Shown: positions 8,974 to 43,199, numbered from the stretch's first letter. The stretch is 64,000 nt of DNA from Armatimonadota bacterium (GCA_025060455.1 JANXBY010000038.1:2292-66291), one strand, 5' to 3'. Notes: generated by a model from the sequence alone, not told the origin. Translations and numbers: made by a program.

Positions 8974-9067
8974 GTGAGGGGGAGGGGCCATCGTCGGACG
9001 TCTGTCTGACACCACTGCGCCACGAGCTGGCGCGGCCGCCAGGAAGGCGCTGCTGCAGCTGTGGGGC

Positions 9068-12278: not shown

Positions 12279-12303
12279 GCGACTCTCACCGAGGAGGCGG
12301 ATC

Positions 12304-12732: not shown

Positions 12733-12737
12733 GGAGG

Positions 12738-13718: not shown

Positions 13719-13772
13719 GCGCCTGCCTGTGAAACGCCGAGCGACGAAGGGCCGTACCTGCTGGGAAACGAC

Positions 13773-14420
13773 GTGGCGCCGCCCGCGGCGTTCGTCAGCG
13801 TCGAGCTGGTGGTGGACTTCGCGGGGGCGACCCGGCGGACGGCGGGATGGCCGGGCGGCGGGGAGCAGCTGGTGCAGGACGCCCGCTACACCATGAAGGG
13901 ATCCGCGGCCCCTGCCACCCTGCACGCAGGGACGCTTCCGGTGGAGTCGCGCGTGGAGGCAGACCTCCCCACGGGCCAGGTGGAGGGGGCGGTGCGGGCA
14001 GCGCCGGCCCACGGGCTGGTACGCCCCAGGGGCTCCAGGCGCTTCTCCCCCGTGCACAACGGTCGGCCCCTGCGGCCGGACAGGGTTCTACCCGCGGACG
14101 CCCCGCCGCCGCATCCACGGGACCTGTTCGCGCGCGGCAACATGGCCGGCGATCCGGGGGCGGTCCACAGGGACGGCCCCTCGCCTCAGACGCACCAGGA
14201 CACCAGCTACGACAGGTCCAGCTTGGCGGACAGCCAGGACACGGTCTTCCGCGCCGGGGCGGACGCGGACCCCGTGGTCGCCCACGTGTACCTGGACGGC
14301 GAGGAGGACGACGCCTTCGCGCAGGAGTTGGTGGCCGCGGGCGAGCGCACGTGCTTTCTGCACGCCCTGTCTCGGTCAGATCTGGACGTGCGGCTGGTCT
14401 TCGGTCCCGCGGGGTGGTAG
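13773..14420 (+). CDS. Hypothetical protein
   Basis: 215 aa ORF tightly packed between the dioxygenase and pobA (stop 2 nt before the pobA start). High GC3. No recognisable domain by eye. Confidence 0.45.
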   Translation: MAPPAAFVSVELVVDFAGATRRTAGWPGGGEQLVQDARYTMKGSAAPATLHAGTLPVESRVEADLPTGQVEGAVRAAPAHGLVRPRGSRRFSPVHNGRPLRPDRVLPADAPPPHPRDLFARGNMAGDPGAVHRDGPSPQTHQDTSYDRSSLADSQDTVFRAGADADPVVAHVYLDGEEDDAFAQELVAAGERTCFLHALSRSDLDVRLVFGPAGW

Positions 14421-14421
14421 G

Positions 14422-28710: not shown

Positions 28711-29919
28711 GTGGTGGCGGTGAAAGCACCGAGGTGGCTCGCGCTGGTCGGGTTGCTGTGCGGGGCCCTGGTGGCGGCGAGCAGCGCCGCGCCGGTGCGC
28801 AGCATCCGGCTGGGGGCGGTGATTCCCCTGAGCGGGGGACTGGCGGCCAACGGACGGTTCATCCGGGCCGGCTACGAGTTCGCGGTGGAGTACCTGAATG
28901 CGCGCGGCGGGGTGCGGCTCGGGGGACAGCGGGTGCCCTTGGAGCTGACGGTGCTGGACGACGAGTCGGACCCCACCAAGACCGTGAGCCGGATGGAGAG
29001 CCTTGCCCAGATGGGCATCTCCGCCTACCTGGGCGGGGTGGGAAGCCACCTGCACGCCGCGGCCGCGGCGGTGGCGGAGAAGAACCAGGTCCCGTACTGT
29101 GGGGTGGGGTTCGCCCTGTGGAGCATCCACCAGCGCGGCTACAAGTACCTGTTCAGCCCCTTCCCCAAGTCGCCGGAACTGGCCGTGGAGACGTACCGCA
29201 TCCTGAACGCGTACGTACCCCCGGAGCAGCGGCCCCGGCGCGTGGCCATCTTCGCGGAGCGCACCGACTGGGGCAAGGAGCAGGCGGACCTGTGGGTCAC
29301 CCGGTCTCGGGAGTTCGGCTACGAGGTGGTGTTCCGGGGCGAGTACACCGTGGGCGCGCGGGACGTGAGCGACCTTATCCTCCGGGCCCGCGCGGCCGGC
29401 GCGGAGCTGGTGCTGGCTGTACCCACCCCCGTGGACACCATCACCATGGTCCGGCAGATGCGCGAGCTGGGCTTTACGCCGAAGGCCTTCTTCGCGCTGC
29501 GGGGCGCGGACTCCATCGCGGTCCGGCAGGCCCTGGGAAAGGACGGAGACTTCTGGGTCTCCATGCCCGGGTGGCACCACGCGGTGAAGTACCCTGGGGT
29601 GGACGAGCTCAACGCGTGGTACCAGCGGCGGTTCGGCACGCCCGCGGAGGTGGCGGTCGGCTCCGCGGTGGCCTGCGTGCAGGTGATCGCCGCGGCGGTC
29701 GAGGATGCGCAGAGCACCGAGCCTACGAAGATCCGGGACGCGGTGGCCAAGGTGAACCTGATGACCATGGCGGGGCGGGTGCGCTTCCGGCCCGACGGCA
29801 CGAGCCCCGTGCCCGTGATCGCGCACCAGTGGCAGAACGGCCAGAGCGTGCTCATCTGGCCGCGGGAGTTCGCCACCGCGCCCTTCGCGTACCCGGCCAC
29901 GCCGTTCGGGGCGCGCTAG
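28711..29919 (+). CDS. ABC transporter substrate-binding protein, LivK family (orphan paralog)
   Basis: 402 aa. Collinear with, and about 70% identical to, the protein at 7777-8973. No permease or ATPase genes follow. Confidence 0.9.
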   Translation: MVAVKAPRWLALVGLLCGALVAASSAAPVRSIRLGAVIPLSGGLAANGRFIRAGYEFAVEYLNARGGVRLGGQRVPLELTVLDDESDPTKTVSRMESLAQMGISAYLGGVGSHLHAAAAAVAEKNQVPYCGVGFALWSIHQRGYKYLFSPFPKSPELAVETYRILNAYVPPEQRPRRVAIFAERTDWGKEQADLWVTRSREFGYEVVFRGEYTVGARDVSDLILRARAAGAELVLAVPTPVDTITMVRQMRELGFTPKAFFALRGADSIAVRQALGKDGDFWVSMPGWHHAVKYPGVDELNAWYQRRFGTPAEVAVGSAVACVQVIAAAVEDAQSTEPTKIRDAVAKVNLMTMAGRVRFRPDGTSPVPVIAHQWQNGQSVLIWPREFATAPFAYPATPFGAR

Positions 29920-29931
29920 GCGCATTCGACA

Positions 29932-30957
29932 ATGAAGGTCTTCAGACTCGTGGCGATCGGCGTAGCGCTGGCCTTAGCCGGTGCGCGACATGCCGGCGGG
30001 CAGCGGCTACCGGTCCAGCTAGATCTGCCGGTTGTTCCCGCCCTGGAACCCGCTCTACCGGTGCTCGTGGCGGAGGCAGCGGGGTACTTCCGAGGAGAGG
30101 GCGTCGAGGTGACGCGGATCCTCCTAACAGGAGGTGTTTCCATCCGAAATCTCCTGATTGGCGGGCGGGCGACGTTCGGAGTTCTCGGCACCGAGCACAT
30201 TCCACTGGCGCGCACTGCGGGGTCTCCGCTGAAGGCCGTAGCGTCGGTGTATGACCGGCTACATGTCACGCTCATCGTGCGCTCGGGACTTCGGGACCAG
30301 GTGAAGTCGGTGGAACACCTACGGGGACGGGTAGTGGGCGTGACCGCGCCCGGGTCCTTCACCTGGTCTGTTGCCGTGACGTTCCTGAAACGGGCGGGTC
30401 TGGAGCCCGAGCGCGATGTGCGGTTGCTGGCCGTGGGCACGGACGCTCACGTTCTGTATGCGGCCTTGCAGACCGGTCGGGTGGACGCCTTGGCTTTCAG
30501 CGAGCCCGTGCTCAGCCGGGCTGTGGTGGATGGAATAGGGTTCGTACTGGTGGATGTCTTTGATCCCGTCGTGGCGCGGCGGTGGATGGGCTCTGACCTT
30601 CTAATGGTCGGCGTGCTGGCGACCACGGAAACCGCTGCGCATACGCAACCGGAGGTGGTCGGCGCTTTGGTGAGGGGGATCAGCAAAGGTCTGGCGTATA
30701 TCCGCAGCCACGGGGCGGATGAGACCATTCAGCTGGTTGTTGGAAACCCGAAGACGTCGCAGCTGTTGCAGGGGGTATCGCGGGAGCTCGCGGTGCGGAT
30801 GATCCACCGCATTCGTCGGGGCTACGGCACAGGGTGTTTGAGTCCTGCTGGCTACCGGGCGGAGCTGCGGAGGATGATCGACACGGGGGTCCTCCCGCAG
30901 CCGGTGTCCTTTGAGGAGGCTACGGACGCCCGTTGGGCGGGGGTGTGCCCTCGGTAG
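29932..30957 (+). CDS. ABC transporter substrate-binding protein, NMT1/SsuA/TauA-like (orphan)
   Basis: 341 aa with signal peptide and PBP2 NitT/TauT-type fold. Noticeably lower GC than its neighbours. Confidence 0.75.
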   Translation: MKVFRLVAIGVALALAGARHAGGQRLPVQLDLPVVPALEPALPVLVAEAAGYFRGEGVEVTRILLTGGVSIRNLLIGGRATFGVLGTEHIPLARTAGSPLKAVASVYDRLHVTLIVRSGLRDQVKSVEHLRGRVVGVTAPGSFTWSVAVTFLKRAGLEPERDVRLLAVGTDAHVLYAALQTGRVDALAFSEPVLSRAVVDGIGFVLVDVFDPVVARRWMGSDLLMVGVLATTETAAHTQPEVVGALVRGISKGLAYIRSHGADETIQLVVGNPKTSQLLQGVSRELAVRMIHRIRRGYGTGCLSPAGYRAELRRMIDTGVLPQPVSFEEATDARWAGVCPR

Positions 30958-30990
30958 TGCGGGAACCGCGCCGGGGAGGAGGGGACGCGG

Positions 30991-31998
30991 TTGGCAATCC
31001 GGCTGGGCCTGCTGATGGCGTTGCTGGTGGTGCCGGCGTGGGCTGGAGCTCCAGCGACAGCCCAGGCGGCCTTCTCGGGGAGGACGGTCACCATCCTCGT
31101 GGGGTACTCACCAGGGGGCGGGTACGATCGCACGGCGCGCCTTGTGTCTCGCTATCTTCCGAGGTACCTTCCCGGCAGTCCCACGGTCGTCGTGCAGAAC
31201 ATGCCGGGTGCAAACAGCATCGTGGCAGCCAACCACCTGTATAATCTCGTACGGCCAGATGGTTTAACCATCGGACTGTTCGCGCGAAACCTAGTCCTGG
31301 CGCAACTGGTCGGAGTAGAGGGAATCCGGGTGGACATGGGGAGGTGGCAGTGGATCGGGAGCCCGGCGGTGGAGACCGACGTCCTAGCGGTTCGCTCCGA
31401 CTTGCCGTACCGGAATGTCCTAGAACTCCGCCGAGCCGACCCACCGGTGGTGTTCGGAGCATCTGGGCCGGGCGACGTCACCTACGACTTTCCACTCGCC
31501 CTGCGAGCGTTTCTCAATCTGAACATCCGTGTTGTTAGCGGCTACCCAGGGAGCGCAGACATCATGCTGGCGATCGAACGCAAGGAGGTAGACGGACGGG
31601 CAGGTTCCTGGTCCTCGCTCAGGCCGTTCGTCCATCGGGGGCTGATCCGGCCGCTGGTTCGCACACCGTCCGACAACCCAGAGCTGCAGGCGATTCCGGC
31701 GGATCTGGAGCTGCCGGTTGGAGCCCTTGCCCGCGAGGTGCTCCGGCTGCGGGCGGTGCCGAACCGGCTGGGGCGGCCTTTCGTGGCCCCGCCAGCCACC
31801 CCGCCGAACGTCGTGGCCGCATACCGGGAAGCGTTTCGTCGGATAACGGAAGACCGGGAGTTCTTAGTGGAGGCGGAACGGGCAGGTTTGGAGGTGACCT
31901 GGGTCTCCGGCGACGAGTGCCTACGGATCGTGCAGGGGGTGCTAGCCAGCCCTCCGTCCGTGGTGCGGGTGTTCCGGGAGTTCTTTCGGTTCCAGTAG
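30991..31998 (+). CDS. Tripartite tricarboxylate transporter substrate-binding protein (TctC/Bug family), orphan
   Basis: 335 aa with signal peptide. VGYSPGGGYDRTARL matches the Bug-family carboxylate-binding motif. No tctAB nearby. Lower GC. Confidence 0.8.
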   Translation: MAIRLGLLMALLVVPAWAGAPATAQAAFSGRTVTILVGYSPGGGYDRTARLVSRYLPRYLPGSPTVVVQNMPGANSIVAANHLYNLVRPDGLTIGLFARNLVLAQLVGVEGIRVDMGRWQWIGSPAVETDVLAVRSDLPYRNVLELRRADPPVVFGASGPGDVTYDFPLALRAFLNLNIRVVSGYPGSADIMLAIERKEVDGRAGSWSSLRPFVHRGLIRPLVRTPSDNPELQAIPADLELPVGALAREVLRLRAVPNRLGRPFVAPPATPPNVVAAYREAFRRITEDREFLVEAERAGLEVTWVSGDECLRIVQGVLASPPSVVRVFREFFRFQ

Positions 31999-32066
31999 GG
32001 GTTCGCCCATCGGGGCAAGAGCTGGAAAGTCCCGGTGGTGTGCCTTCAATGAGCTTACAGGGGAGC

Positions 32067-33470
32067 ATGATGGAGAAGTCTCGGCCGGCGCGGAGCCTCC
32101 AGGAGGTCCTGGACGCGGTGGGAAATGTGGTGGCCTTTCTGTATAACAACCCCACCGGTGCTCGCCCGTTTCCCGTGGTCCCGCCGGAGTTCACCAACTG
32201 GCGGGACGAACAACACGCGTGGCGTGAGACGGTGGCGTTGTTCGACCTGTCGCACCACATGAGTGACCTATACGTCTACGGGCCGGACGCCTTTGCGCTG
32301 TTGGAGCACCTGGCCATCAACAGCTTCCGCAATTTCCGGCCGGGGATGGCGAAGCAGTTCGTGGCATGCACCAAGGAGGGCTACGTCGTCGGGGACGCGG
32401 TCTTGTTCTACCTGGAGGCCCAGACGTTTCAGCTGGTGGGGCGTCCCTCGGCGCTCAAGTGGGTGCAGTACCACGGAGAGGCTGGTCGGTGGCGGGTGAG
32501 ATGCGAGAGGGACGACTGGTCGTTGGCTGACCCCCATAGGCCGCGGAAGGTGTACCGCTACCAGCTGCAGGGGCCTAACGCTCCCGCACTGCTCGAGAAG
32601 CTCAACGGTGGGCCACTACCCCACGTGAAGTTCTTCCAAATGACTTGGATCACCGTCGCGGGACGGAGGGTGATGTTTTTGCACCACGGTATGGCGGGAG
32701 TGGCAGGCGGGGAGCTGTTCGGCCCTTGGGAGGACGGGCCGGCCGTACGGGGTGCCATCGTGGAGGCGGGCCGAGAGTTCGGCCTGCGCCAGGTAGGGAG
32801 CCGAGCGTATGCCACGAACGCCCTGGAGTCCGGGTGGATCTCTGGGGTCGTACCCGCCATCTACGTGGACGAGGAACTGCGCGCGTACCGAGAGTGGCTA
32901 CCCGCAACCAGCTACGAGGCCACGGGATCCTTGGGCGGCAGCTTCTACTCGCGTTACATCGAAGACTACTACCTGACTCCCTGGGATCTGGGCTACGGCC
33001 ACATCCTGAAGTTCGACCACGACTTTGTGGGCCGCGAGGCCCTGGAGGTCAAGGCCCAGCAACCCCACCGACGAAAGGTCACCCTGGTATGGGACCCGCG
33101 GGACGTGGCCGCTGTTTTCGAAACTCTGTTCACACGCCCGAAGGGGCAACGTGCTAAGTACCTGGACCTTCCTGTGCCCCGGTACAGCATGTGGCAGTAC
33201 GACCGTGTCGAGAGTCCGGACGGCCGAATGGTTGGGATTTCCACCTCGTGTGGCTACAGCTCGAACGAAGGGGCAATGTTGTCGCTCGCCATGGTTGAAC
33301 CCGAGTACAGCGAGCCGGGGACGCGGGTGGTAGTGATCTGGGGCGAGGAAGGCGGCGGGTCGCGGAAGCCGAGCGTGGAGCGGCACGCGCAGGTGGAGAT
33401 CCGGGCTACCGTGGCGCCGGTCCCGTACTCGGAGGCGGCCCGGCGGTACCGCCAGGCGGTGTCGGGTTAG
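32067..33470 (+). CDS. Tetrahydrofolate-dependent aromatic O-demethylase (LigM/DesA-like, GcvT fold), copy 1
   Basis: About 467 aa. Collinear, as far as I recall the sequence, with Sphingobium LigM (LQEVL..., PVVPPEFTNWRDEQHAWRE, YEATGSLGGSF, VLWGEEGGGSRKPSVE). Start chosen at ATG 32067/32070 near GGGGAG; the 31917 ORF start adds an unlikely extension. Confidence 0.85.
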   Translation: MMEKSRPARSLQEVLDAVGNVVAFLYNNPTGARPFPVVPPEFTNWRDEQHAWRETVALFDLSHHMSDLYVYGPDAFALLEHLAINSFRNFRPGMAKQFVACTKEGYVVGDAVLFYLEAQTFQLVGRPSALKWVQYHGEAGRWRVRCERDDWSLADPHRPRKVYRYQLQGPNAPALLEKLNGGPLPHVKFFQMTWITVAGRRVMFLHHGMAGVAGGELFGPWEDGPAVRGAIVEAGREFGLRQVGSRAYATNALESGWISGVVPAIYVDEELRAYREWLPATSYEATGSLGGSFYSRYIEDYYLTPWDLGYGHILKFDHDFVGREALEVKAQQPHRRKVTLVWDPRDVAAVFETLFTRPKGQRAKYLDLPVPRYSMWQYDRVESPDGRMVGISTSCGYSSNEGAMLSLAMVEPEYSEPGTRVVVIWGEEGGGSRKPSVERHAQVEIRATVAPVPYSEAARRYRQAVSG

Positions 33471-33627
33471 AACCGCCTGTTGCGAAGCAGCCTGAGGCGC
33501 GGATGAGCCAGCGTGCGCAACCAGCACGTCACTGGGACTGTGGAGGGGCTGGATCACCGCGTCTCACTCCGGTGACGGGCCCTGGCACGACGAGGCGGTT
33601 CCGTGATGAGGAGGACGGTGGTCTGTC

Positions 33628-35268
33628 GTGACACAGCCGCTGGTAGACGTGGCGCGGTCTCTACATCTCCGGGACGACGAGGTCGTTCCGTACGGCCGGG
33701 ACAAGGCCAAAGTTCTGGTCGACGCCCTGCACCGGCGCCAAGGGTGGCCCGACGGCGCCCTGGTGCTGGTTACCGGGATCAACCCCACCGCCGCGGGTGA
33801 AGGGAAGACCACCACCGCCATCGGCCTCGCGGACGCCCTGCGACGTCTGGGCCGGCGAGCGGTGGTGGCCCTCCGGGAGCCCTCCATGGGGCCGTGCTTC
33901 GGGGCCAAGGGAGGGGGAACGGGTGGGGGCCGGGCCCAGGTGGTCCCCGCGGACGACATCAACCTGCACTTCACCGGAGACCTACACGCGGTGGCGGCGG
34001 CCCACAACCTGATCGCGGCGGTGGCGGACAACGCCCTGTTCCACCGCAGGGTGCCGGGGCTGCGCCCAGACAACGTCTGGTGGCGGCGCGTGCTGGACAC
34101 CAACGACCGTGCCCTGCGACAGGTGGTCGTGGGGCTAGGTGGGGGCGCGCACGGGGTCGCACGGGAGACCGGCTTTGACATCACCGCGGCGTCCGAGGTG
34201 ATGGCGGTACTGTGTCTGGCGCAAGACCGTGTGGACCTGAAGGCGCGGCTGGGCCGGATGGTGGTGGGCGAGCGGGAAGACGGCAGCCTGGTCACCGTGT
34301 GGGACCTGGGCGTGGCGGGCGCCGCCGCCGCCCTGCTGAAGGACGCGCTGCACCCCAACCTCGTTCAGACCCTGGAGGGCACCCCAGCCTTCGTGCACGG
34401 TGGCCCGTTCGCGAACATCGCGCACGGCTGCAGCAGCCTGGTGGCGACCCAGCTGGCGTTGAAGTGTGCGGAGCTGGTGGTCACGGAGGCGGGGTTCGGG
34501 ACAGACCTCGGGGCGGAGAAGTTCGTGCACATCAAGTGCCGCACGGGGCGGCTACGGCCCGGCGTGGCGGTGGTGGTTGCTTCCGTGAGAGCCCTGCGGA
34601 GGCATGGAGGCGCGGGCAACCGTGCGGAGCAGCCTGACCCCGCCGCGGTGGAGCGGGGGATGGCAAACCTGGACAAGCACGTGGAGAACGTCCGCCACCT
34701 GGGCCTGCAGCCGGTGGTAGCGGTGAACTGTTTCGGGGGTGACGCGCGGGAAGAGGTGGAGCTGGTGCTGGATCACTGCGACGCCCTCGGAGTGCCCGCG
34801 GCGCGTTTCCGGGCGTGGGAACTCGGCGCCGAGGGTGGGCTGGAGCTGGCGGAGCTGGTGGACGCCCTCGTCCGCAACCACCAGGGGATCTCCGGGACTC
34901 GTTTCCTGTACGAGCCCAGCTGGCCGTTTGAGCGCAAGCTGGAAGCCATAGCCACTACCCTGTACGGCGCGGCCGGCGTGGATCTGTCCCCGCGGGCGCG
35001 GGCCAAGCTGTCCCGGTACGAGCAGCTCGGCTACCGGGAGCTGGCGGTGTGCGTGGCCAAGACCCAGTACTCGCTGTCGGACGACCCGAACAAGCTCGGC
35101 CGGCCCCAGGGCTTCCGCATCACGGTGCGGGACGTGCAGCTATCCGCCGGGGCGGGCTTCGTGGTGGCCTACAGCGGCGACGTGCTGACCATGCCGGGGC
35201 TGCCCAAGCACCCCGCCGCCGAGCGGTTCGACCTGACCTCCGAGGGGCGGATCGTCGGGCTCACCTGA
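33628..35268 (+). CDS. fhs: Formate-tetrahydrofolate ligase (LigH-like)
   Basis: 546 aa, collinear with Fhs (TPAGEGKTTT P-loop, FGAKGG). GTG start with a GAGGAGG ribosome-binding site. Confidence 0.95.
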   Translation: MTQPLVDVARSLHLRDDEVVPYGRDKAKVLVDALHRRQGWPDGALVLVTGINPTAAGEGKTTTAIGLADALRRLGRRAVVALREPSMGPCFGAKGGGTGGGRAQVVPADDINLHFTGDLHAVAAAHNLIAAVADNALFHRRVPGLRPDNVWWRRVLDTNDRALRQVVVGLGGGAHGVARETGFDITAASEVMAVLCLAQDRVDLKARLGRMVVGEREDGSLVTVWDLGVAGAAAALLKDALHPNLVQTLEGTPAFVHGGPFANIAHGCSSLVATQLALKCAELVVTEAGFGTDLGAEKFVHIKCRTGRLRPGVAVVVASVRALRRHGGAGNRAEQPDPAAVERGMANLDKHVENVRHLGLQPVVAVNCFGGDAREEVELVLDHCDALGVPAARFRAWELGAEGGLELAELVDALVRNHQGISGTRFLYEPSWPFERKLEAIATTLYGAAGVDLSPRARAKLSRYEQLGYRELAVCVAKTQYSLSDDPNKLGRPQGFRITVRDVQLSAGAGFVVAYSGDVLTMPGLPKHPAAERFDLTSEGRIVGLT

Positions 35269-36829
35269 GGGCGCGGGACGCCTGCGGACTGAGCGGGGCG
35301 GGTCGGGGTTCGGGCAGAACTTCCGCGCGGGAGCCCTGACCCCGGAAGTGGTGGACCCACGAGCACGTACCCCGCACCTCTTCCGGCACAGGAGCCACCC
35401 ACGTGGCTTCCCACTGCAACACGCGGCCCGTGTGCTTGGCCAGCCGGTACACGCGCGCGTGGATGCACTCCCGGTCGCCGAACTCACAGGTGTTGCCGTC
35501 GGTGCCGCCGCAGGGGCCGTTGGCGAGGCCCTTGGGGCAGGTCTCCGGGCACACGAAGAAGGTGTGCGGCAGCCGACACGACCCGCACATCTGGCAGCCC
35601 AGCCAGCCGCCCTTGAGGGCGTGCTCCACCCGGCCCAAAGCCCTGCCGGCAGCGCTGCGGGGGTCGGTGCGAGCCACCAAAGCTCCCGCCGCGCGGGCCA
35701 GGGGCGAGCCGTGGTCGAACACCCAACGGTCCAAGGCCTGCAGGATCCGGAACCGGCGGATCTCCGCGGGGGAGGCCAGGGCGTCGTAGGGTGGGGCGTC
35801 CAGGTAGAAGGGGTCTTCGGGGACCAGCCGCACCGGTCGGCGGTCAGGGTGCCGCATGAACTCGTCCCACGCGGACTCCCAGGATCTCAAGTCCGGGCAG
35901 TCGCGCCGCCACCGCTCCACCGCGTCGAGGAGCTCCTCGAGGGTGCGCGGGGTGTGGGCGCCGCACACGTGGGCGCCGGCGAGCCCGAGCCGGGCCGCGC
36001 CTACCACCTGCAGCGCGGCCCGCAGGATGGCCCTCTGGCGGCCGTGGTCCGGAGCCTTTGCTTCTGCCTCAAGACACCGCAGCAGGTCCGGAGGCACGTA
36101 CACCCCCGGCAGAGTAGCTCCCTGCAGGAGCCGCGCGGCCAGCCGGGGAGTGAGCAGCCACACGGTGGCCAGCACCGGGGGGTGCAGGCCCCGCCGGCCC
36201 AACCAGCCCGCCAGCTCCACCAGCTTGCGGGGATCCCACCCGATCTGGGTGATCAACAGGTCCGCGCCTGCCCGCAGCTTCTTAGCGGCCTTCACGTACT
36301 GGCCCAGCAGGGCTTCCTCCCGGTACTTAAAGGGGTTCACTGCCGCGGCCAGCAGGGAGTCCGGAAGCTCGTGGCGGGCCATGCGCAGAGCGTCCACGGA
36401 GTCCAGGTAGCGGGCAGATCCCTCCCGGGGAGGCTCCCTCAGGGCATCTCCGGTCAGGAACAAGAAGCTCTGAAGCCCACCCGTGCGGGCGCGCTCCAGG
36501 TCCCGCTGGAGGTGTAAGGCGGTGCGGCCCTTGCCTGCCCAGTGGACGAGCGGGACGGTCCCGGTGACCTCCGCTACCCGCAAGGCGACCGAGATGGGGT
36601 CGTGGTCGCGATCCGTCCGCACCCGGTCGGAGACGGTAATGGCCGTTGCCCGCCCGTCCTCTTGCAGCCAGCGGGCGAGTGCCGTGACTTCCGACACCAC
36701 ATCCTCCAGGGGCTTTGAGCCCAGGAGGGGCGGTGACTCCACGGTGAGGGCGAAGCCTCTCCGGCCCAGGACCTCCGCGAGGCGGCTCCGGTACCCGCGG
36801 CCGGTGCCCGAGGAGGCGTCGTGCCCCAT
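35261..36829 (-). CDS. Methylenetetrahydrofolate reductase (MetF-like) fused to an MTHFR C-terminal zinc-ribbon domain (MetV-like)
   Basis: About 523 aa from ATG 36829 (MGHDASSG...). N-terminal MTHFR TIM-barrel. C-terminal CQMCGSCRLPHTFFVCPETCPKGLANGPCGG...CEFGDREC cysteine cluster characteristic of MetV. Start ATG overlaps the upstream ligM-like stop (ATGA). The 37057 ORF start is rejected. Confidence 0.8.
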   Translation of the reverse strand: MGHDASSGTGRGYRSRLAEVLGRRGFALTVESPPLLGSKPLEDVVSEVTALARWLQEDGRATAITVSDRVRTDRDHDPISVALRVAEVTGTVPLVHWAGKGRTALHLQRDLERARTGGLQSFLFLTGDALREPPREGSARYLDSVDALRMARHELPDSLLAAAVNPFKYREEALLGQYVKAAKKLRAGADLLITQIGWDPRKLVELAGWLGRRGLHPPVLATVWLLTPRLAARLLQGATLPGVYVPPDLLRCLEAEAKAPDHGRQRAILRAALQVVGAARLGLAGAHVCGAHTPRTLEELLDAVERWRRDCPDLRSWESAWDEFMRHPDRRPVRLVPEDPFYLDAPPYDALASPAEIRRFRILQALDRWVFDHGSPLARAAGALVARTDPRSAAGRALGRVEHALKGGWLGCQMCGSCRLPHTFFVCPETCPKGLANGPCGGTDGNTCEFGDRECIHARVYRLAKHTGRVLQWEATWVAPVPEEVRGTCSWVHHFRGQGSRAEVLPEPRPAPLSPQASRALR

Positions 36830-38226
36830 CAGCGGCGTGTCACCGCCGCCCGGTACTGGCGTGCGGCCTCCGAGAAGGGAACGGGCGCCACGGAGGCGCG
36901 GATCTCCACCTGCACGTGGGGCTCCACGCTGGGCTTGCGCGACCCGCCGCCCTCCTCGCCCCAGACCACCACCACCCGCGTCCCGGGGGTGCTGTAGGGT
37001 TCCTCCACGACGGCCAACGACAGCATGGCGTGGTCGTTCCAGCTGTAGCCCGGCCACATGGAGAACCCGACCACTTCACCACGGTCGTTGAGCACCTTGT
37101 CGTACATCCAGGTGGCGTACTGGGACACCGGGAGGTCGATGTACTTGGCCTGCTGGCCGGACGGCTTGGTGAACAACGTCCCGAAGGCCTGGGCCACGTC
37201 GTCCCCGTCCCACACCAGGGTCACCCTCCTGCGGTGGGGACCCTTGGCCTTGGCCTCCAGGGCGTCGCGGCCCACGAAGTCGTGGTCAAACTTCAGGATG
37301 TGGCCGTACCCCAGCTCCCACGGGGTGAGGTAGTAGTCCTCCACGTTGCGGGAGAAGAAGCTCCCGCCCAGGGAGCCCACCGCTTCGTAGCTGTTCGCGG
37401 GTAGCCACTGGCGGTACGGCCGCAGCTCCTCGCCGGTGTAGATGGCGGGGAGGGGGCAGGGGATCCACCCGGAGTCCAGGGCGTTGGTGGCGTATGCCCG
37501 GGAGCCAACCTGCCGCAGCCCGAACTCCTGGCCCGCCTCGACGATGGCCGCCTTCACCGCGGGCCCATCCTCGAAGGGCCCGAACAGCTCGGCCCCCGCC
37601 ACGCCTGCCATGCCGTGGTGCAGCATGCGCACCCTCCGGCCCGCGATGGTGATCCAGCCCATGTGGAAGAACTTCACATCTGGCAGCGGGCCGCCGTTGA
37701 GCTTCTCCAGCAGGGCGGGAGCGTTGGGGCCCTGCAACTGGTAGCGGTACACCTTCCGGGGCCGGTGGGGGTCCAGCACCGACCACTCGTCCCGCTCCAG
37801 CTGCACGTCGTAGCCGCCGGTCTGGGCGTGGTACTGGACCCAGTTGTGGGCAGAGGGCCGGCCCACCAACTGAAAGCTCTCGCGGTCCAGGTAGAACAGG
37901 ATGCCGTCCCCGATCACGTAGCCCGCGGGAGTGCACACCACCAGCTGCTTGGCCCGGCCGGGCTCGAAGTTCTTGAAGCTGTTGATGGCCAGACGCTCCA
38001 GCAGCCGGAAGGCGTCGGGGCCCCGCACGTACAGGTCCGTCATGTGGTAGGAGAGGTCGTAGAGGGCCACCGTCTCCCGCCAGGACCGCTGCTCGTCCCG
38101 CCAGTTGGTGAACTCCGGGGGCACCACGGGGTAGATCCGGGTGCCCGTGCGGTTGTTGTACAGGAACTCGGCGATGTTGGGCACCGAGTCCAAGACCTCC
38201 TGAAGGTTGCGCGGCGCGGCGCTCAC
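36829..38226 (-). CDS. Tetrahydrofolate-dependent aromatic O-demethylase (LigM/DesA-like), copy 2
   Basis: 465 aa, collinear with copy 1 and with LigM. High GC, native-like composition. Confidence 0.85.
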   Translation of the reverse strand: MSAAPRNLQEVLDSVPNIAEFLYNNRTGTRIYPVVPPEFTNWRDEQRSWRETVALYDLSYHMTDLYVRGPDAFRLLERLAINSFKNFEPGRAKQLVVCTPAGYVIGDGILFYLDRESFQLVGRPSAHNWVQYHAQTGGYDVQLERDEWSVLDPHRPRKVYRYQLQGPNAPALLEKLNGGPLPDVKFFHMGWITIAGRRVRMLHHGMAGVAGAELFGPFEDGPAVKAAIVEAGQEFGLRQVGSRAYATNALDSGWIPCPLPAIYTGEELRPYRQWLPANSYEAVGSLGGSFFSRNVEDYYLTPWELGYGHILKFDHDFVGRDALEAKAKGPHRRRVTLVWDGDDVAQAFGTLFTKPSGQQAKYIDLPVSQYATWMYDKVLNDRGEVVGFSMWPGYSWNDHAMLSLAVVEEPYSTPGTRVVVVWGEEGGGSRKPSVEPHVQVEIRASVAPVPFSEAARQYRAAVTRR

Positions 38227-38256
38227 CGTCCTCCCCCCTTTCGGTGTGTTCGCCCC

Positions 38257-39267
38257 TTAACGCTTCGCCTCCGCACGGCCGGCAGCCACTTCCACGGGCG
38301 GTGTGCCGTACGTGTGGAAGGTGGCCACCGTGGGCAGGCCCCATGCCTGCCCCTTCTTGCGCTCCGCCTCGCTCCAGACCACCGGCTTCCAGTCCGGAGC
38401 CAGCAGCAGGCGGGCCCCGGGGCAGGCGATCTCGAACCGGTTCCCCCCAGGCTCGTACACGTACAGGAAGAAGGTCTGCTGGATCGCGTGCTTGTGCGGC
38501 CCGGTCTCGATGGGGACCCCATACTCCAGGCAGACGTCCGCGGCCCGCAGCACCTCCTCCCGGCTGTCCACCGCGTAGGTGAGGTGGTGGAAGCGACCGC
38601 GGCAGCCGGTGGCGTCCTCGGTGATGGCCAGGTCGTAGGTCTTGTTGCACACCGTCAGCCACGCGCCCTTCTCCGAGCCGTCGTCGAACACGACGGCTTC
38701 CGTGAGACGGAACCCCAGCACCTCCTGGAAGAACCGACGGCTGGTCCGGACGTCCGCGGCGAAAAAGTTCACGTGGTCCAGGCGGCGCAGGTTGCAGCCG
38801 CGGGCGGGAAATCGGGAGGCCTGGTTCTTGAGGGCAGGCCGGGTGTCGGGGGTCGGCCGGTACCACTCCACCTCGTACAGCAGCTCCAGCAGGTGGCCGT
38901 CGGGGTCCCGGAAGCGGTAGGCGGGACCGTGGCCCAGGTCGCCGTCTACCCAGCCTTCCCCGAGCCCCGACCGCTCCACCGCCTCCACGCGCCGCTGTAG
39001 GGCTTCGGGGCTGGTGGCCCGGAAGGCGCAGTGGCCCATGCCCGGGTACGGGGAGGCGGTGACCTTGAGGGTGTGGTGGGCGTAGTCGTCCCACCCTCGC
39101 AGGTACACGGACTCGCCCTGCCGGCCGCTCTGCACCAACCCCATGACCTCCGTGAAGAAGCGGACCGTGTCCTCGAGTTTGGGGGTGAGCAACTCCACGT
39201 GGCTGAGGTGGGCCACATCGAAGCTTAGGGGTCCCACGCTGAACTTCAGTTCCTCCACACCGACCAC
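38257..39267 (-). CDS. Type I extradiol ring-cleavage dioxygenase (catechol 2,3-dioxygenase-like), copy 2
   Basis: 336 aa, paralog of 12738-13718 (FSVGPLSFDVAHLSHVELLTP...HHLTYAV...YVYEPGGNRFE). Confidence 0.9.
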   Translation of the reverse strand: MVGVEELKFSVGPLSFDVAHLSHVELLTPKLEDTVRFFTEVMGLVQSGRQGESVYLRGWDDYAHHTLKVTASPYPGMGHCAFRATSPEALQRRVEAVERSGLGEGWVDGDLGHGPAYRFRDPDGHLLELLYEVEWYRPTPDTRPALKNQASRFPARGCNLRRLDHVNFFAADVRTSRRFFQEVLGFRLTEAVVFDDGSEKGAWLTVCNKTYDLAITEDATGCRGRFHHLTYAVDSREEVLRAADVCLEYGVPIETGPHKHAIQQTFFLYVYEPGGNRFEIACPGARLLLAPDWKPVVWSEAERKKGQAWGLPTVATFHTYGTPPVEVAAGRAEAKR

Positions 39268-39280
39268 CCCCCGGTGGTTG

Positions 39281-39904
39281 CTAGCCGCCTGCCACCTGCC
39301 TGCGCAGCCCGTGCAGGTCGTAGGTGAGGGCTCCCTGTTCCAGCTGGGCCCGTAGCGCCGCCTCCCGCGCCGCCCTGGCCCGGGCGGCCTCCAGCACGTC
39401 GGGAACCCGCTCCGCGGCTACCACCACGGCACCGTCCGCGTCCAGCACCACCACGTCCCCCGGACGGACTGTGGTGCCGCCCACCACCACCGGTTTGTCG
39501 ATGGCGCCCCACACGGACTTGCCCGCGCCGCGCACGCTCACGAACCGGGCCCAGACGGGGAGGCCCAGGGCCCGCAGTTCCTCCACGTCCCGGACGGCTC
39601 CGTCCACCAGGACCGCCGCCGCGCCCCTCACCTTGGCCTGCAGGGCGAGGATCTCACCCACCAGGGCCACCGGTGCCGGCTCGGGCATGGAAACCACCAG
39701 CACGTCCCCGGGCTGCACCCGCTCCATAACCGCGTGCACCATGAGGTTGTCGTCCTGACCGCACCGCACCGTCCGGGCAGGCCCTGCGGCGCGGCTGCCG
39801 GGCACCACCTGGACCCAGGGGCCTTCCAGCAGGCCCGTGCGGCCCGCGGCCTCGTACACCGTGGCCACGCCCAACTGCGCCAGCTCCCTCATCTGCGTGT
39901 TCAC
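39281..39904 (-). CDS. RraA-family aldolase/decarboxylase (LigK/GalC-like)
   Basis: 207 aa RraA fold (GDVLVVSMPEP...VLVDGAVRDVEEL). The family includes LigK of the protocatechuate 4,5-cleavage pathway (4-carboxy-4-hydroxy-2-oxoadipate aldolase). Confidence 0.8.
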   Translation of the reverse strand: MNTQMRELAQLGVATVYEAAGRTGLLEGPWVQVVPGSRAAGPARTVRCGQDDNLMVHAVMERVQPGDVLVVSMPEPAPVALVGEILALQAKVRGAAAVLVDGAVRDVEELRALGLPVWARFVSVRGAGKSVWGAIDKPVVVGGTTVRPGDVVVLDADGAVVVAAERVPDVLEAARARAAREAALRAQLEQGALTYDLHGLRRQVAGG

Positions 39905-40638
39905 AACTCCCTCACCACCTGGGGCAGGAGGCGTTGGAACGCCTCCGCGTACTGGATGCCTCGGTCACCTGACAGGCGGCGCGCGTGGTTGGCCCGCCGC
40001 TGCGCCGTAGCGGTGTAGTAGTCCACCAGGTACCGCTGGGAGGCCACCGCCTCCATGGCCTGCCGCTTGAGGGCGAACACGGGCGTGATGTCCAAGAAAG
40101 TGGTGGGGACGAACCCGCACACCTCCGACTGGTGTGGCTCGAACGCGAGCACCTCCGCCGGCCGCACCGTCTGGAAGGCGCTGGCCACGCCCGCACCGGA
40201 GGCCAGCTGTCGGGCCCGTTCGGTGGCCTGGTACGCCACCGGATGGTCGGGGTTGAAGGGATCGCGCTCCGTGTGCGTGAGGATCACGTCCGGGGCCCAC
40301 TCCCGAATGACGGAGGCCAGCTCCTCTACCCGCTCCGTGCCTGCCTCCAGGGGGTAGTCACCCCAGTCCAGGCAGCGGAAGGAGGCGCCGAGCACCTCCG
40401 CGGCGCGGCTGGCTTCCTCGTGGCGGATGGCTTTGACGCGCTCCACCGTCTGGCCAGGCTGTGCCCACAGTTCCCCCGACTCCCCACGCTCGCCGTACGA
40501 CAGCGCCACCACCAGGGCGGATCCCCCGCGCCGGGTGACGGTGGCAATGGCGCCCGCCGCACGCCACACGAAGTCCGCCGCGTGGGCGCTCACCACCAGC
40601 AGCCGCCGGGCCACGCGGGCGTCCAGCTGGGCCGTCAC
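39901..40638 (-). CDS. PIG-L/LmbE-family deacetylase-like protein
   Basis: About 245 aa from GTG 40638 (VTAQLDARVARRLLVVSAHAADFVW...). HxDD-like N-terminal motif of LmbE-like hydrolases. 4-nt overlaps at both ends. The longer ORF to 40953 overlaps the GntR gene. Confidence 0.7.
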   Translation of the reverse strand: MTAQLDARVARRLLVVSAHAADFVWRAAGAIATVTRRGGSALVVALSYGERGESGELWAQPGQTVERVKAIRHEEASRAAEVLGASFRCLDWGDYPLEAGTERVEELASVIREWAPDVILTHTERDPFNPDHPVAYQATERARQLASGAGVASAFQTVRPAEVLAFEPHQSEVCGFVPTTFLDITPVFALKRQAMEAVASQRYLVDYYTATAQRRANHARRLSGDRGIQYAEAFQRLLPQVVREL

Positions 40639-41318
40639 GGGATCGCCACCTCCGAGGTCTGCCGGGCCACCTCCCGCAGGGTGGCCGCCACCGCCTCCAG
40701 GTGCGCCCGCATGCTCGCCTCCGCGGCGTCGGGATCCTTCGCGGCCACCGCGTCCACGATGGCCCGGTGCTCCTGAAGGGACCGGGGCAGGCGGCCCGGG
40801 GCCAGCACGGTGCGGTACTGGTACCGAACCATCTGGGCCCGCAAGGAGTCGAGGAGGCGTGCGGCGGTCAGGTGGCGACTGGCTGTTACCAGCACCTCGT
40901 GGAACCGGCGGTTGCACTCCGTGTACCGAAAGGTGTCGCCCTTGCGGGCGCACGCCGCCATCTCGCGAAGGATGGATCGCAGCTGGCGGAGGTCCTGCGG
41001 TGTGGCCCGCTGGGCCGCGTGCCGCGCCGCGAGCCCCTCCAGGGCAGCCCGGGCCTCCAGGATCTCCACCGCCTCCTGCTCCGTCAGCAAGCGGACCCGC
41101 GCGCCCCGGTTGGGAGCGCGTTCCACCACGCCTTCCTGCTCCAGCCGGGCCAGAGCGGTCCGCACCGCAGCCCGTCCCACGCCCAGCATGCGGACCAGCT
41201 CGGCTTCCACCAGCCGTTGCCCGGGAACCAGGCGGCCCTCCAGGACCGCCCGGCGCAGCTCCTGGTAGCAGTAGGACTCGCCGTGGCCGCGCTGCAGCCG
41301 CCGCCCCTTGGCCCTCAA
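40635..41318 (-). CDS. GntR-family transcriptional regulator (FadR/FCD subfamily)
   Basis: About 227 aa. Winged HTH (YQELRRAVLEGRLVPGQRLVEAELVRMLGVGRAAVRTALARLEQEG) plus FCD domain. Only plausible start is a TTG overlapping the upstream stop (TTGA). Confidence 0.75.
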   Translation of the reverse strand: MRAKGRRLQRGHGESYCYQELRRAVLEGRLVPGQRLVEAELVRMLGVGRAAVRTALARLEQEGVVERAPNRGARVRLLTEQEAVEILEARAALEGLAARHAAQRATPQDLRQLRSILREMAACARKGDTFRYTECNRRFHEVLVTASRHLTAARLLDSLRAQMVRYQYRTVLAPGRLPRSLQEHRAIVDAVAAKDPDAAEASMRAHLEAVAATLREVARQTSEVAIP

Positions 41319-42238
41319 CCGTCCACCCCCGATCGGCCGATCCGCACCGAGTTGCGCAACATGGTCCTGACCGCCTCCTCCGACAACCCCAAGCTCAGGA
41401 GCCGGTCCACCATCAGGGGCAGGCCGTCCTCCACAGGGGGTGCGTGCACCTGACCCAGGTCGCTGGACAGGAAAGAGTGCTGGGCACCTACCTCCTGCAC
41501 CACCTCCACCAGCTCTTCCCAGGAGATTTTCCCGCTGTGGGCGGTGCCAAAGCACCGCTCCAGCCACGCGCCCTCCCGTGCCAGCTGCCTCTGGTCGTGG
41601 ACGCCCAGGCGCTGGGTGGGGAAGTCCGGGTGCGTCACCACGATGCACCGGACTCCCGCGGACCGGGCGGCTTCCACTACAGCGAAGATCTCGTCCCGGG
41701 ACAGATGGCCGGTGGCCAGGACCATTTGGTGACGCGCCACCACCCGCAGCACGTCCCGCAACTCGGGCAAAGGCTCCCCACGACTGTCCACCACCCGGAC
41801 CGGGTCATACCGCAGACCTGCCCGACGCAACTCCTCCTGCATCTGGGCCCACACCGGCCGCCGGCCCTCGGTGGGGTGTCGCCCGGGGCTTTCGTTCTCC
41901 GCGTCCACGGTGGGTAGCCACACGATGCGCGCTCCCTCCCGCGCGGCGATCTCCACCGCCACGGGGTTCAGCCCGCCCACAGATGCGTTGAGGCAGATGG
42001 AGCCCAGCACGTCCACCTCCGGGACGACAGTCCGGGCCAGCCGGGCACGGCCCGCGGTGGGCGTGTAGTGGGACTTGATGGCAAACCCCGCCAGGCCCCG
42101 CTCCGCGAACCGCCGGGCCACCTCCAGGTCGTCCGCCCGGCGCGGGAGGACGTCGGGCGCGCTGTGCACGTGGAGGTCGTACGCGCCGCGCACCAGCGCC
42201 AGCGCCCGGGGACTGGGCACGGATTCGTGTTGGTTCAC
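41315..42238 (-). CDS. Metal-dependent hydrolase, amidohydrolase/TIM-barrel-like (DLHVHS motif)
   Basis: About 307 aa from GTG 42238. YDLHVHSAPD metal-binding motif and a KSHY motif. The N-terminal 227 aa of the track ORF are an antisense artefact. Confidence 0.65.
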   Translation of the reverse strand: MNQHESVPSPRALALVRGAYDLHVHSAPDVLPRRADDLEVARRFAERGLAGFAIKSHYTPTAGRARLARTVVPEVDVLGSICLNASVGGLNPVAVEIAAREGARIVWLPTVDAENESPGRHPTEGRRPVWAQMQEELRRAGLRYDPVRVVDSRGEPLPELRDVLRVVARHQMVLATGHLSRDEIFAVVEAARSAGVRCIVVTHPDFPTQRLGVHDQRQLAREGAWLERCFGTAHSGKISWEELVEVVQEVGAQHSFLSSDLGQVHAPPVEDGLPLMVDRLLSLGLSEEAVRTMLRNSVRIGRSGVDG

Positions 42239-43017
42239 GGGCCCCCCGCCAGATCCTCCAGCCACTTCGCCGACGCCCGGGCCACCCGCGGCGGCACCTT
42301 CAGCTCCTCGAGCAGCTCGCAGGCAGCCCGCATCTCGTCCACCCGTCGGGCCGCGTGGAGTCGGGTGCCCTCGACCAGGCGCCGCAGCAGCTGTGCGTCG
42401 GCCTCCAACAGGGTCCGTTGGATGTCCTCGTAGGTCTCCTCCTCGCAGCCTAGGGCGTGCGCCGCCGCCAGGGCTTCCCACACCGCGGCGGCCAGTCCCT
42501 TCATGAAAACGCTGCGAACCAGCTTCCGGCTGGCCGCAACTCCCACCTCCGGCCCCAGCACCTGCACCGGCAGCCCCAACGGTCCGAGCCGATTCGCCAG
42601 CGCCTGGGCCCCGGGCCCGCTGGCCAGCGCGGGCGTGCGGAGGCCACGGCCCAGCACGGGTGCCATCAACGCCACGTCCGCAAACAGGGCCCCGCTGGGC
42701 TCCACCACCGCACCGACCCGGCGCTTGAGGGCGGGAGAGGTGGTGTTGCAGTCCGCGTACACCTGGCCGGGCCGAAGCACCGGGCGTACAGACTCGGCGA
42801 CGTCTAGGGCGGCAGACGGGGTGGTCAGGACGAGGATCACATCCGCCTGCGCCGCTGCACCGGCGGGGTGCGGCGCCAGGGGTACCGCGCCGGGCACCCG
42901 TTTGGGCTGCGGATCCCACCCCACCACCTGCGCGCCTACCCGGGCCAGGTCCTCCGCCACGGCGCTGCCGGCTTCTCCCAGGCCGAACACCGCCACCGTG
43001 AGGGAGGGCGCGGACAC
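42235..43017 (-). CDS. NAD(P)-binding oxidoreductase (6-phosphogluconate/3-hydroxyisobutyrate dehydrogenase-like)
   Basis: About 260 aa from GTG 43017. Rossmann motif VAVFGLGEAGSAVAEDL. First gene behind the promoter at 43036-43064. Confidence 0.65.
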   Translation of the reverse strand: MSAPSLTVAVFGLGEAGSAVAEDLARVGAQVVGWDPQPKRVPGAVPLAPHPAGAAAQADVILVLTTPSAALDVAESVRPVLRPGQVYADCNTTSPALKRRVGAVVEPSGALFADVALMAPVLGRGLRTPALASGPGAQALANRLGPLGLPVQVLGPEVGVAASRKLVRSVFMKGLAAAVWEALAAAHALGCEEETYEDIQRTLLEADAQLLRRLVEGTRLHAARRVDEMRAACELLEELKVPPRVARASAKWLEDLAGGP

Positions 43018-43035
43018 CCGTGGCTGCACGGCGGC

Positions 43036-43064
43036 ATTGTATTTCCCGGCGCCCGCACTGTCAA
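43036..43064 (-). promoter_or_regulatory. Consensus sigma-70 promoter: TTGACA, 17 nt, TACAAT (minus strand)
   Basis: Read directly: the reverse complement of 43036-43064 is TTGACAgtgcgggcgccgggaaaTACAAT. It sits 19 nt upstream of the oxidoreductase GTG and 58 nt downstream of the tRNA-Pro 3' end. Confidence 0.7.
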
Positions 43065-43122
43065 CTTTGTTGTAGACAATCTTGCAGTGGAGACCACGGG
43101 ACAACGGGTGAACACGGCTTTT

Positions 43123-43199
43123 TGGTCGGGCCGGGCGGATTTGAACCGCCGACCTCCTGAACCCCATTCAGGTGCGCTCCCAGGCTGCGCTACGGCCCG
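43123..43199 (-). tRNA. tRNA-Pro (anticodon GGG)
   Basis: 77-nt cloverleaf read on the minus strand: CGGGCCG acceptor stem, GCGC D-stem, anticodon loop AUGGGGU (U33, GGG, G37), GGCGG/CCGCC T-stem with UUCAAAU loop, discriminator A, encoded CCA. Confidence 0.85.

Follow-up and report, generated by a model that had tools for sequence, protein, structure and literature searches.

A predicted tetrahydrofolate-dependent aryl O-demethylation and ring-cleavage locus in a thermophilic bacterium of Candidatus Sysuimicrobiota

Organization of the locus

A 64,000-nt window of genomic DNA filed under Armatimonadota bacterium (GCA_025060455.1, JANXBY010000038.1:2292-66291) features at positions 32067-38226, counted from its first letter, two genes of the LigM/DesA family of aryl O-demethylases, ligM1 and ligM2, along with genes for a formate-tetrahydrofolate (THF) ligase (fhs) and a methylenetetrahydrofolate reductase (MTHFR), the latter designated metFV. 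All four long open reading frames (ORFs) are intact, as reported in the initial annotation of this DNA. The G+C content is about 71% for the window, and 65-72% across the region. E-values of the family matches range from 1e-160 to 1e-228, and chance similarity is therefore excluded.

The four genes had been described as a single module. They are arranged in two convergent units, ligM1-fhs on the plus and ligM2-metFV on the minus strand (Table 1). The 3' ends of fhs and metFV overlap by 8 nt (35261-35268), leaving no intergenic room for a terminator. A longer, tightly packed ring-cleavage operon, which extends beyond 32067-38226 and is preceded by a tRNA-Pro(GGG) gene, ends with ligM2 and metFV. 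From the tRNA, the order on the minus strand is DUF1932 dehydrogenase, DUF6282 protein, GntR/FCD regulator, GalB, LigK, VOC dioxygenase, ligM2, metFV. The tRNA is the sole match in the locus to Rfam at gathering thresholds, and no riboswitch or other RNA was detected. A genomic island linked to the tRNA was considered; the whole arrangement is syntenic with the comparison loci L002, the closest relative, and L003.

Table 1. Features of the locus, with the matches on which each is named
Feature	Position	Strand	Evidence and remarks
Solute-binding protein, Peripla_BP_6 (LivJ-like)	28711-29919	+	PF13458 154 bits
Solute-binding protein, NMT1/SsuA-like	29932-30957	+	PF09084 77 bits; G+C at third codon positions (GC3) 0.75
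Solute-binding protein, TctC/Bug family	30991-31998	+	PF03401 41 bits
ligM1, LigM/DesA family, 467 aa	32067-33470	+	DesA model 649 bits, LigM model 556 bits; GC3 0.82
fhs, formate-THF ligase, LigH equivalent, 546 aa	33628-35268	+	PF01268 759 bits; NF010030 753 bits
metFV, MetF-MetV fusion MTHFR, 522 aa	35261-36829	-	PF02219 43.9 bits + PF12225 62.4 bits
ligM2, LigM/DesA family, 465 aa	36829-38226	-	LigM model 603.7 bits, DesA model 654.6 bits
Type I (VOC) extradiol dioxygenase	38257-39267	-	TIGR03211 333 bits; PF00903 domains
LigK/GalC-type 4-carboxy-4-hydroxy-2-oxoadipate aldolase/oxaloacetate decarboxylase	39281-39904	-	PF03737 126 bits; NF006731 185 bits
GalB-type 4-oxalomesaconate hydratase, PIG-L fold	39901-40638	-	PF02585 79 bits; PDB 5cgz 198 bits
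GntR/FCD transcriptional regulator	40635-41318	-	PF07729 118 bits + PF00392 57 bits
DUF6282 protein, amidohydrolase-superfamily fold	41315-42238	-	Candidate analogue of 2-pyrone-4,6-dicarboxylate lactonase
6PGDH-like NAD(P)-binding dehydrogenase with DUF1932	42235-43029	-	PF03446 + PF09130; PDB 3qsg 101 bits; candidate LigC analogue
tRNA-Pro(GGG)	43123-43199	-	ARAGORN + Rfam, 60.9 bits

Family membership follows from the sequence for the products of ligM1 and ligM2, Fhs, GalB, LigK, the VOC dioxygenase and the MTHFR domain. Linkage counts given below refer to 81 comparison loci centered on LigM homologues, in which genes residing within 10 kb of the homologue were scored. Statements on missing genes for FolD, LigB-domain proteins and tautomerases refer to the ORFs scanned across the 64-kb window.

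The two LigM/DesA proteins

By sequence, both proteins are members of the LigM/DesA clade of the GcvT superfamily. The NCBIfam DesA model (NF047633) is the best-scoring one for either copy (649 bits for ligM1, 655 bits for ligM2), and the LigM model (NF047885) scores 556 and 603.7 bits, respectively. Models for GcvT, DmdA, SoxA and trimethylamine N-oxide demethylase (Tdm) stay under 90 bits with both copies; identity as GcvT or DmdA was rejected on this difference (<90 vs. 556-655 bits). The ligM2 product aligns with LigM of Sphingobium SYK-6 (PDB 5x1i) through residues 3-458 on 5-462 (546 bits, E = 7e-163). The ligM1 product is 75% identical to it over 458 residues without gaps, and the collinearity with Sphingobium LigM over the full length, noted in the initial annotation, holds for the two copies. 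Identity to SYK-6 LigM is 49.4% for ligM1 and 54.1% for ligM2. The ligM2 gene has a GTG start, with a GGGGGGAGG ribosome-binding site ahead.

The relationships were analyzed in a neighbor-joining (NJ) tree in which 97 LigM-family sequences from the comparison loci were joined by both window copies, SYK-6 LigM and, as outgroups, three GcvT-type proteins. Neither support values nor a DesA sequence are included, and the sampling is centered on ligM2. Outgroups sit on a long branch and are 23-31% identical. Both the tree and the model scores place the two proteins with LigM/DesA rather than with GcvT or DmdA, as had been anticipated.

Both copies keep the LigM residues Y247, H60, R122, E215, F110, F188/189, N250 and W256; Y31 is replaced by F in ligM1. 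Tyr247 is reported as the catalytic residue of LigM, with His60, Arg122 and Glu215 as its neighbors (Kohler 2017, Harada 2017), and the remaining positions would be catalytic or ligand-binding. A role as THF-dependent aryl O-demethylases is predicted for both proteins. The association of ligM-like genes with formate-THF ligase and MTHFR genes, likened from the start to the SYK-6 ligM-metF-ligH trio, stands as a functional correspondence.

Host, distribution of the family and age of the duplication

The exact ligM2 protein was found elsewhere only on a 2.6-kb contig from a read archive (SRR15826899), with 99.9% DNA identity to the window. The nearest genomes are metagenome-assembled genomes (MAGs) of Candidatus Sysuimicrobiota (formerly CSP1-3). 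That of Ca. Tepidifontimicrobium thermophilum is 92% identical in protein and about 80% identical in DNA over 33673-43081, and its flanks are syntenic with the window, ispH, der, lexA and rny included. Other near MAGs of the phylum are L003, Ca. Fervidifonticultor octavus, Ca. Sysuimicrobium calidum and bacterium HR32 (L006). The host is a thermophilic hot-spring bacterium of this uncultured phylum, and the Firmicutes-like genome initially suggested has to be discarded.

The family is large. With E <= 1e-30 as the limit, at least 8000 proteins in the database match, and at least 596 loci were found among GTDB species representatives, the hosts listed including Actinomycetota, Gaiellaceae, Thermoleophilia, Rubrobacter, Acidobacteriota, Chloroflexota, Thermomicrobium, Sphaerobacter and Gammaproteobacteria. 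The view that such genes are essentially confined to alphaproteobacteria is wrong at the gene level. The claim of novelty outside that class is overstated and fails as regards the mere presence of the genes: the genes had been noticed in other hosts before, and what is added is Sysuimicrobiota, a phylum for which they had not been discussed. NCBI names the proteins of Sphaerobacter thermophilus (76% identical) and Thermorudis peleae vanillate/3-O-methylgallate O-demethylase. DesA-like aminomethyltransferases, with metF and ligH, were described in thermophilic MAGs of Solirubrobacterales, Thermoleophilaceae and Rubrobacter, as predictions without validation (Levy-Booth et al. 2022, PMC9296663). 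Biochemical proof of such demethylases outside Proteobacteria seems to be lacking in the literature examined. The main text of two phylum-level papers on CSP1-3 mentions neither aromatic catabolism nor demethylases.

In the NJ tree the two window copies fall in a clade of eight sequences, all from Sysuimicrobiota, within which ligM2 groups with L001-L004 and ligM1 with L005 and L006. The sister group is made up by Thermomicrobium, Sphaerobacter, HR28 and one Bacillota MAG. Because ligM1 and ligM2 form separate groups in a clade restricted to the phylum, the duplication is, according to the tree, old and internal to Sysuimicrobiota. A recent tandem duplication was rejected, as the copies are 75% identical and orthologues of ligM2 reside in L002-L004, those of ligM1 in L005 and L006.

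Relative to L002, the window contains 3.8 kb of additional DNA (29907-33673) encompassing the NMT1-type and TctC-type binding protein genes and ligM1. GC3 of these genes is 0.75-0.82 vs. 0.88-0.95 in their neighbors, and 0.95 in ligM2. The order NMT1-TctC-ligM1-fhs is shared with HR32 at 81% DNA identity. In L003, ligM1 is found between the LivJ-like binding protein gene and fhs. In both L002 and L003 the LivJ-like protein (95% and 87% protein identity, with DNA synteny) adjoins fhs. The NMT1-type gene accompanies ligM1 in L005, TctC and ligM1 in L006, and is missing from L002. In the window, three successive binding proteins of three families (28711-31998) are encoded right upstream of ligM1, with no adjacent permease or ATPase gene; the TctC/Bug protein is a candidate aromatic-acid receptor.

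A fused MetF-MetV reductase

Taken alone, the metFV product matches PF02219 with 43.9 bits and, through its C-terminal part, PF12225 ("MTHFR C-terminal") with 62.4 bits. A profile built from 44 members of the family matches the Thermus MTHFR 3apt over the catalytic barrel (E = 6e-14), along with human, yeast and E. coli MTHFRs, and does not match the type 4 structures 7XG9 and 7XLF even at E <= 10. The family alignment has E31, D128 and Q195 invariant in the catalytic domain, and eight invariant Cys in the C-terminal domain; the three former residues are presumably the counterparts of E. coli E28, D120 and Q183. By its domains metFV is a type-3-like MTHFR with both parts in one chain. The "MetF" of the initial annotation is accordingly a genuine MTHFR, but a MetF-MetV fusion and not the single-domain type 4 enzyme known from SYK-6. 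Transfer of electrons to an acceptor distinct from NAD(P) is the probable function of the Cys-rich domain.

According to Yu et al. 2025, type 3 MTHFR is a complex of MetF and an Fe-S subunit; type 4 MTHFR has the catalytic domain only, and oxidizes methyl-THF without use of NADH, to an acceptor not known. THF-dependent demethylases are paired with a dedicated, methyl-THF-oxidizing enzyme of the latter type (Yu et al. 2025).

The stop codon of ligM2 and the ATG of metFV overlap (TGATG), and metFV is judged from its sequence to be translationally coupled to ligM2. MTHFRs with the eight-Cys domain are encoded near LigM homologues in 15 of the 81 loci, in Sysuimicrobiota and Actinomycetota. Those of Actinomycetota are 28-33% identical to metFV, with all eight Cys aligned and one extra residue in the motif. 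Seven distant homologues (44-51% identity) were also sampled, and all reside in C1-THF gene clusters. Five adjoin GCV_T-family (demethylase-type) genes, three FTHFS, two a NuoF-like subunit and formate dehydrogenase, and one FolD. The MetF-MetV fusion is the general MTHFR architecture of these lineages, and the window copy looks like a dedicated paralogue: L082, from another Sysuimicrobiota MAG (GCA_031459855.1), has a second metFV, only 51% identical, beside metH-like genes, which suggests that the LigM-linked copy is specialized.

Two further arrangements of metFV were observed. In L082 (1-13572), metFV comes after two DMGDH-like DAO-GCV_T genes and is in turn succeeded by Pterin_bind, FTHFS, a corrinoid-protein-like gene, RACo and S-methyl_trans. 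Such a set points towards methyl transfer of the corrinoid-dependent kind, or towards a methionine synthase in split form. L084, L085, L086 and L088 feature a cassette that combines GCV_T (~392 aa) with genes for a choline-kinase-like protein and an MFS transporter, with metFV and often with a DMGDH-like gene; in L085 and L086 it is adjoined by glycine cleavage genes. From its makeup, the cassette may couple the demethylation of methylamines or quaternary amines to the fused MTHFR.

The ring-cleavage operon

The fold of the dioxygenase is VOC (type I; PF00903), not the LigB fold typical of LigAB, GalA, DesB and DesZ; its PDB matches include 9wgj (394 bits), 3lm4 and 7q2a (247 bits each). LigB-domain genes are missing from the ORFs scanned. 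The GalB-type protein aligns with the P. putida structure 5cgz ("4-oxalmesaconate hydratase") through residues 16-248 on 3-238 (198 bits, E = 1e-57), the next PIG-L structures scoring 33 bits at most. The LigK-type protein exceeds the cut-off of NF006731 (185 vs. 179 bits) and falls below that of TIGR02798 (ligK_PcmE; 175 vs. 304 bits). The long open frame of the DUF6282 gene continues into non-coding sequence upstream, and the reality of the gene is supported by tblastn conservation; neither a PDB sequence search (nothing significant) nor a literature search returned a clue to DUF6282. The start of the dehydrogenase gene is uncertain, since the mechanical ORF (42235-43167) enters the tRNA gene and the true start lies further downstream.

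Near LigM homologues, the dioxygenase is encoded in 30 of the 81 loci, DUF6282 in 28, GalB in 26, the dehydrogenase and LigK in 25 each. The five-enzyme block hence recurs in 25-30 loci, in at least two gene orders and mostly in Gaiellaceae and Thermoleophilia. Three DUF6282 loci with no LigM gene nearby were sampled independently, and two of them (L091, L092) also contain the block. Because it recurs apart from LigM, the block looks like a self-contained module.

In the third of these loci, L090 (Ktedonosporobacter rubrisoli CP035758.1, 8001-11823), DUF6282 resides outside a ring-cleavage block and adjoins an ABC transporter whose binding protein is NMT1-type, of the same family as that encoded upstream of ligM1.

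Proposed pathway and alternatives

The locus appears, with moderate confidence, to serve the catabolism of methoxylated aromatic acids of the vanillate, syringate or 3-O-methylgallate type. The two LigM/DesA paralogues would transfer the aryl methyl group to THF, converting vanillate to protocatechuate and/or syringate to 3-O-methylgallate and then gallate, and yielding 5-methyl-THF along with the catecholic acid (protocatechuate or gallate). The fused MTHFR would oxidize 5-methyl-THF to 5,10-methylene-THF. The C1 unit would leave through FolD, encoded elsewhere, and Fhs, which would convert 10-formyl-THF to formate and THF as LigH does in SYK-6. The directions of the MTHFR and Fhs reactions are thereby assumed. 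Fhs exceeds the cut-off of NF010030 (652 bits), aligns with PF01268 over positions 13-555 of 556, and is encoded immediately 3' of ligM1 in the window, L003 and L006.

The VOC dioxygenase would open the ring of protocatechuate, 3-O-methylgallate or gallate, its presumed substrates. The hemiacetal aldehyde would be oxidized to 2-pyrone-4,6-dicarboxylate (PDC) by the DUF1932 dehydrogenase, acting as a 4-carboxy-2-hydroxymuconate-6-semialdehyde (CHMS) dehydrogenase analogous to LigC. The PDC lactone would be opened to 4-oxalomesaconate (OMA) by DUF6282, OMA hydrated to CHA (4-carboxy-4-hydroxy-2-oxoadipate) by the GalB-type protein, and CHA split into pyruvate and oxaloacetate by the LigK-type aldolase. 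Carboxylated catechols are proposed as substrates because GalB and LigK act on OMA and CHA, compounds which arise only from carboxylated catechols. This scheme is the simplest one to employ all of the conserved genes. Non-orthologous enzymes would apparently have been recruited at several steps of protocatechuate 4,5-cleavage, two of them being domains of unknown function. A bolder, tentative proposal, which falls short of being probable, is that four assignments hold jointly: DUF6282 as PDC lactonase, DUF1932 as CHMS dehydrogenase, a type I extradiol enzyme in place of LigAB, and the MetF-MetV fusion as the counterpart, among the Gram-positive-related phyla (Bacillati), of proteobacterial type 4 MTHFR, oxidizing demethylase-derived methyl-THF via its own Fe-S domain.

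A number of observations weigh against a pathway for methoxylated aromatic acids, and are given here with the alternatives they favor. The case for the locus proteins, as for their close relatives, is built from sequence. Both copies score well under the DesA equivalog cut-off (800 bits), and ligM1 under that of LigM (580 bits). SYK-6 LigM lies in another clade, the members of which are 63-67% identical to it. LigM residues Y29, Q57 and R147 are changed to R, L and W in both copies although the other positions are kept, and substrate preference therefore cannot be assigned from these residues. FolD is missing from the window, no THF_DHG_CYH domain being found in the ORFs scanned, and the initial description of the THF module as complete is not supported.

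The ring-cleavage block may serve gallate, the dioxygenase leading directly to OMA, or a non-carboxylated catechol, in which case protocatechuate 4,5-cleavage and the LigC-like and LigI-like roles of DUF1932 and DUF6282 would be wrong. Conversion of gallate to pyruvate takes a dioxygenase, GalB and aldolase only, following the logic of the gal genes of P. putida, from which the 5cgz hydratase comes. The dioxygenase is over the catechol 2,3-dioxygenase equivalog cut-off, if barely (TIGR03211, 333 vs. 320 bits), and the literature search returned protocatechuate 4,5-, gallate and 3-O-methylgallate dioxygenases of type II (LigB fold) only. The fold match of DUF6282 is generic for amidohydrolases, LigI (COG3618) ranking 32nd, and the Ktedonosporobacter homologue adjoins transporter genes. 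An OMA tautomerase (LigU/GalD) was found neither in the operon nor in the scans of the window. Against this, the dehydrogenase and DUF6282 are as conserved near LigM homologues as GalB and LigK, and accompany them also in L091 and L092; moreover, the operon lacks the genes of the catechol meta-pathway (semialdehyde dehydrogenase, hydrolase, tautomerase, DmpG-type aldolase). This alternative is rather unlikely.

Alternatively, fhs and metFV may be housekeeping or assimilatory C1 genes (reductive glycine pathway, methyl branch, methionine synthesis), their adjacency to the ligM genes being incidental. One of the CSP1-3 phylum papers interprets fhs and folD as genes of the reductive glycine pathway, with no mention of aromatic catabolism in the main text. 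L002 keeps fhs in the same place without ligM1, and fhs lies near a LigM homologue in just 4 of the 81 loci, a lineage-specific linkage. Three of the seven distant metFV homologues adjoin split-methionine-synthase-like genes (Pterin_bind, RACo, S-methyl_trans or MetE), which suggests methionine synthesis. These data are countered by the overlap of the ligM2 stop and metFV start codons, the pairing of LigM and metFV genes across two phyla, the second metFV copy beside metH-like genes in L082, and the precedent of SYK-6. Incidental adjacency is regarded as unlikely, and a C1 route fed by the demethylases is preferred.

That ligM1 and ligM2 perform the same chemistry on other methoxybenzoates or on some other methoxylated natural product, so that they would be mislabeled as lignin-monomer enzymes, would fit their Sysuimicrobiota-only clade, the low scores and replaced residues listed above, and the existence in the superfamily of THF-dependent dicamba demethylases acting on other aryl methyl ethers, but is quite improbable given that ligM2 surpasses the NCBIfam LigM equivalog cut-off and that the substrates of the neighboring GalB and LigK are tricarboxylic products of ring fission, derived from carboxylated catechols such as protocatechuate and gallate.

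Comparison with known systems

Overall, the locus may reasonably be described as following the logic of SYK-6 with a fused MTHFR and apparently non-orthologous ring-cleavage enzymes, the interpretation drawing on gene context beyond the level of family membership. As in Sphingobium lignivorans SYK-6 (ligM-metF-ligH and DesA), two demethylase paralogues are found, with formate-THF ligase and MTHFR encoded alongside, and the paralogues are collinear with LigM and keep the Tyr reported as catalytic. Unlike those of SYK-6, they belong to a Sysuimicrobiota host, originated inside that phylum and do not fall in the clade of SYK-6 LigM. The genes are also arranged differently from the SYK-6 operon, being split in two convergent units, with ligM2 inside the ring-cleavage operon and FolD not nearby.

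The operon resembles the pathway of protocatechuate 4,5-cleavage (LigAB-LigC-LigI-LigU-LigJ-LigK) and the P. putida GalA-GalD-GalB-GalC pathway in having a GalB-type hydratase and a LigK/GalC-type aldolase, and its dioxygenase, dehydrogenase and hydrolase-fold protein fit the number and kinds of activities needed. It differs in the enzymes themselves. The dioxygenase is VOC and not LigB-type; the dehydrogenase is 6PGDH-like with DUF1932, LigC being a Gfo/Idh/MocA protein; the candidate lactonase, DUF6282, does not match LigI in sequence; a GalB-type hydratase stands in the place of LigJ, and no counterpart of LigU/GalD was found in the window.

Like type 4 MTHFR (S6MTHFR, 7XG9/7XLF; Yu et al. 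2025), metFV is genetically coupled to a THF-dependent demethylase; unlike it, metFV has an extra C-terminal domain. With the type 3 MetF/MetV of acetogens it shares the combination of a MetF catalytic domain and a Cys-rich MetV-type module (PF12225), yet metFV is a single polypeptide of ~520 aa in a context of aerobic-type aromatic catabolism, not acetogenesis. The DesA-like proteins of Levy-Booth et al. 2022 belong to the same family, are likewise predictions and come from thermophilic non-proteobacterial hosts with metF and ligH in their genomes. The window copies are from a different phylum and a separate subclade, and neither the DUF1932-DUF6282-GalB-LigK-VOC block nor the fused MTHFR is described in that work (PMC9296663).

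Implications

LigM/DesA genes as such add one phylum, Sysuimicrobiota, to a family already known in thermophiles and beyond alphaproteobacteria. More is offered by the gene context, which gives testable functions for DUF6282 and DUF1932, points to a type I extradiol dioxygenase in a role for which only type II enzymes are known, and suggests that a fused MetF-MetV enzyme fills the role of the proteobacterial type 4 MTHFR. Gaiellaceae, Thermoleophilia and Sysuimicrobiota all have instances of the block and of the fused MTHFR. If the bolder proposal above is true, lignin-derived methoxy-aromatics would be degraded in soils and hot springs by a route that is widespread but has so far escaped annotation, and fhs and MTHFR genes alone would be no markers of autotrophy in Sysuimicrobiota; in annotating these MAGs, they are not to be taken solely as carbon-fixation genes. 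Thermostable versions of the enzymes would be of interest for lignin valorisation.

Other features of the window

A second putative aromatic-catabolic cluster spans positions 1-15618. It includes a gene for a thiamine pyrophosphate enzyme, molybdenum hydroxylase large (1713-3962), 2Fe-2S (~3959-4489) and FAD (4224-5339) subunit genes, and an IclR regulator (6822-7673, minus strand). A LIV-type ABC transporter is encoded at 7774-12278 and a CMD-family protein at 12205-12732, along with a second VOC extradiol dioxygenase at 12498-13718 and, at 13897-15618, an FAD aromatic hydroxylase. At 57118-60711 resides a RecJ-like ORF (DHH, DHHA1 and RecJ_OB domains) with an appended HIRAN domain.

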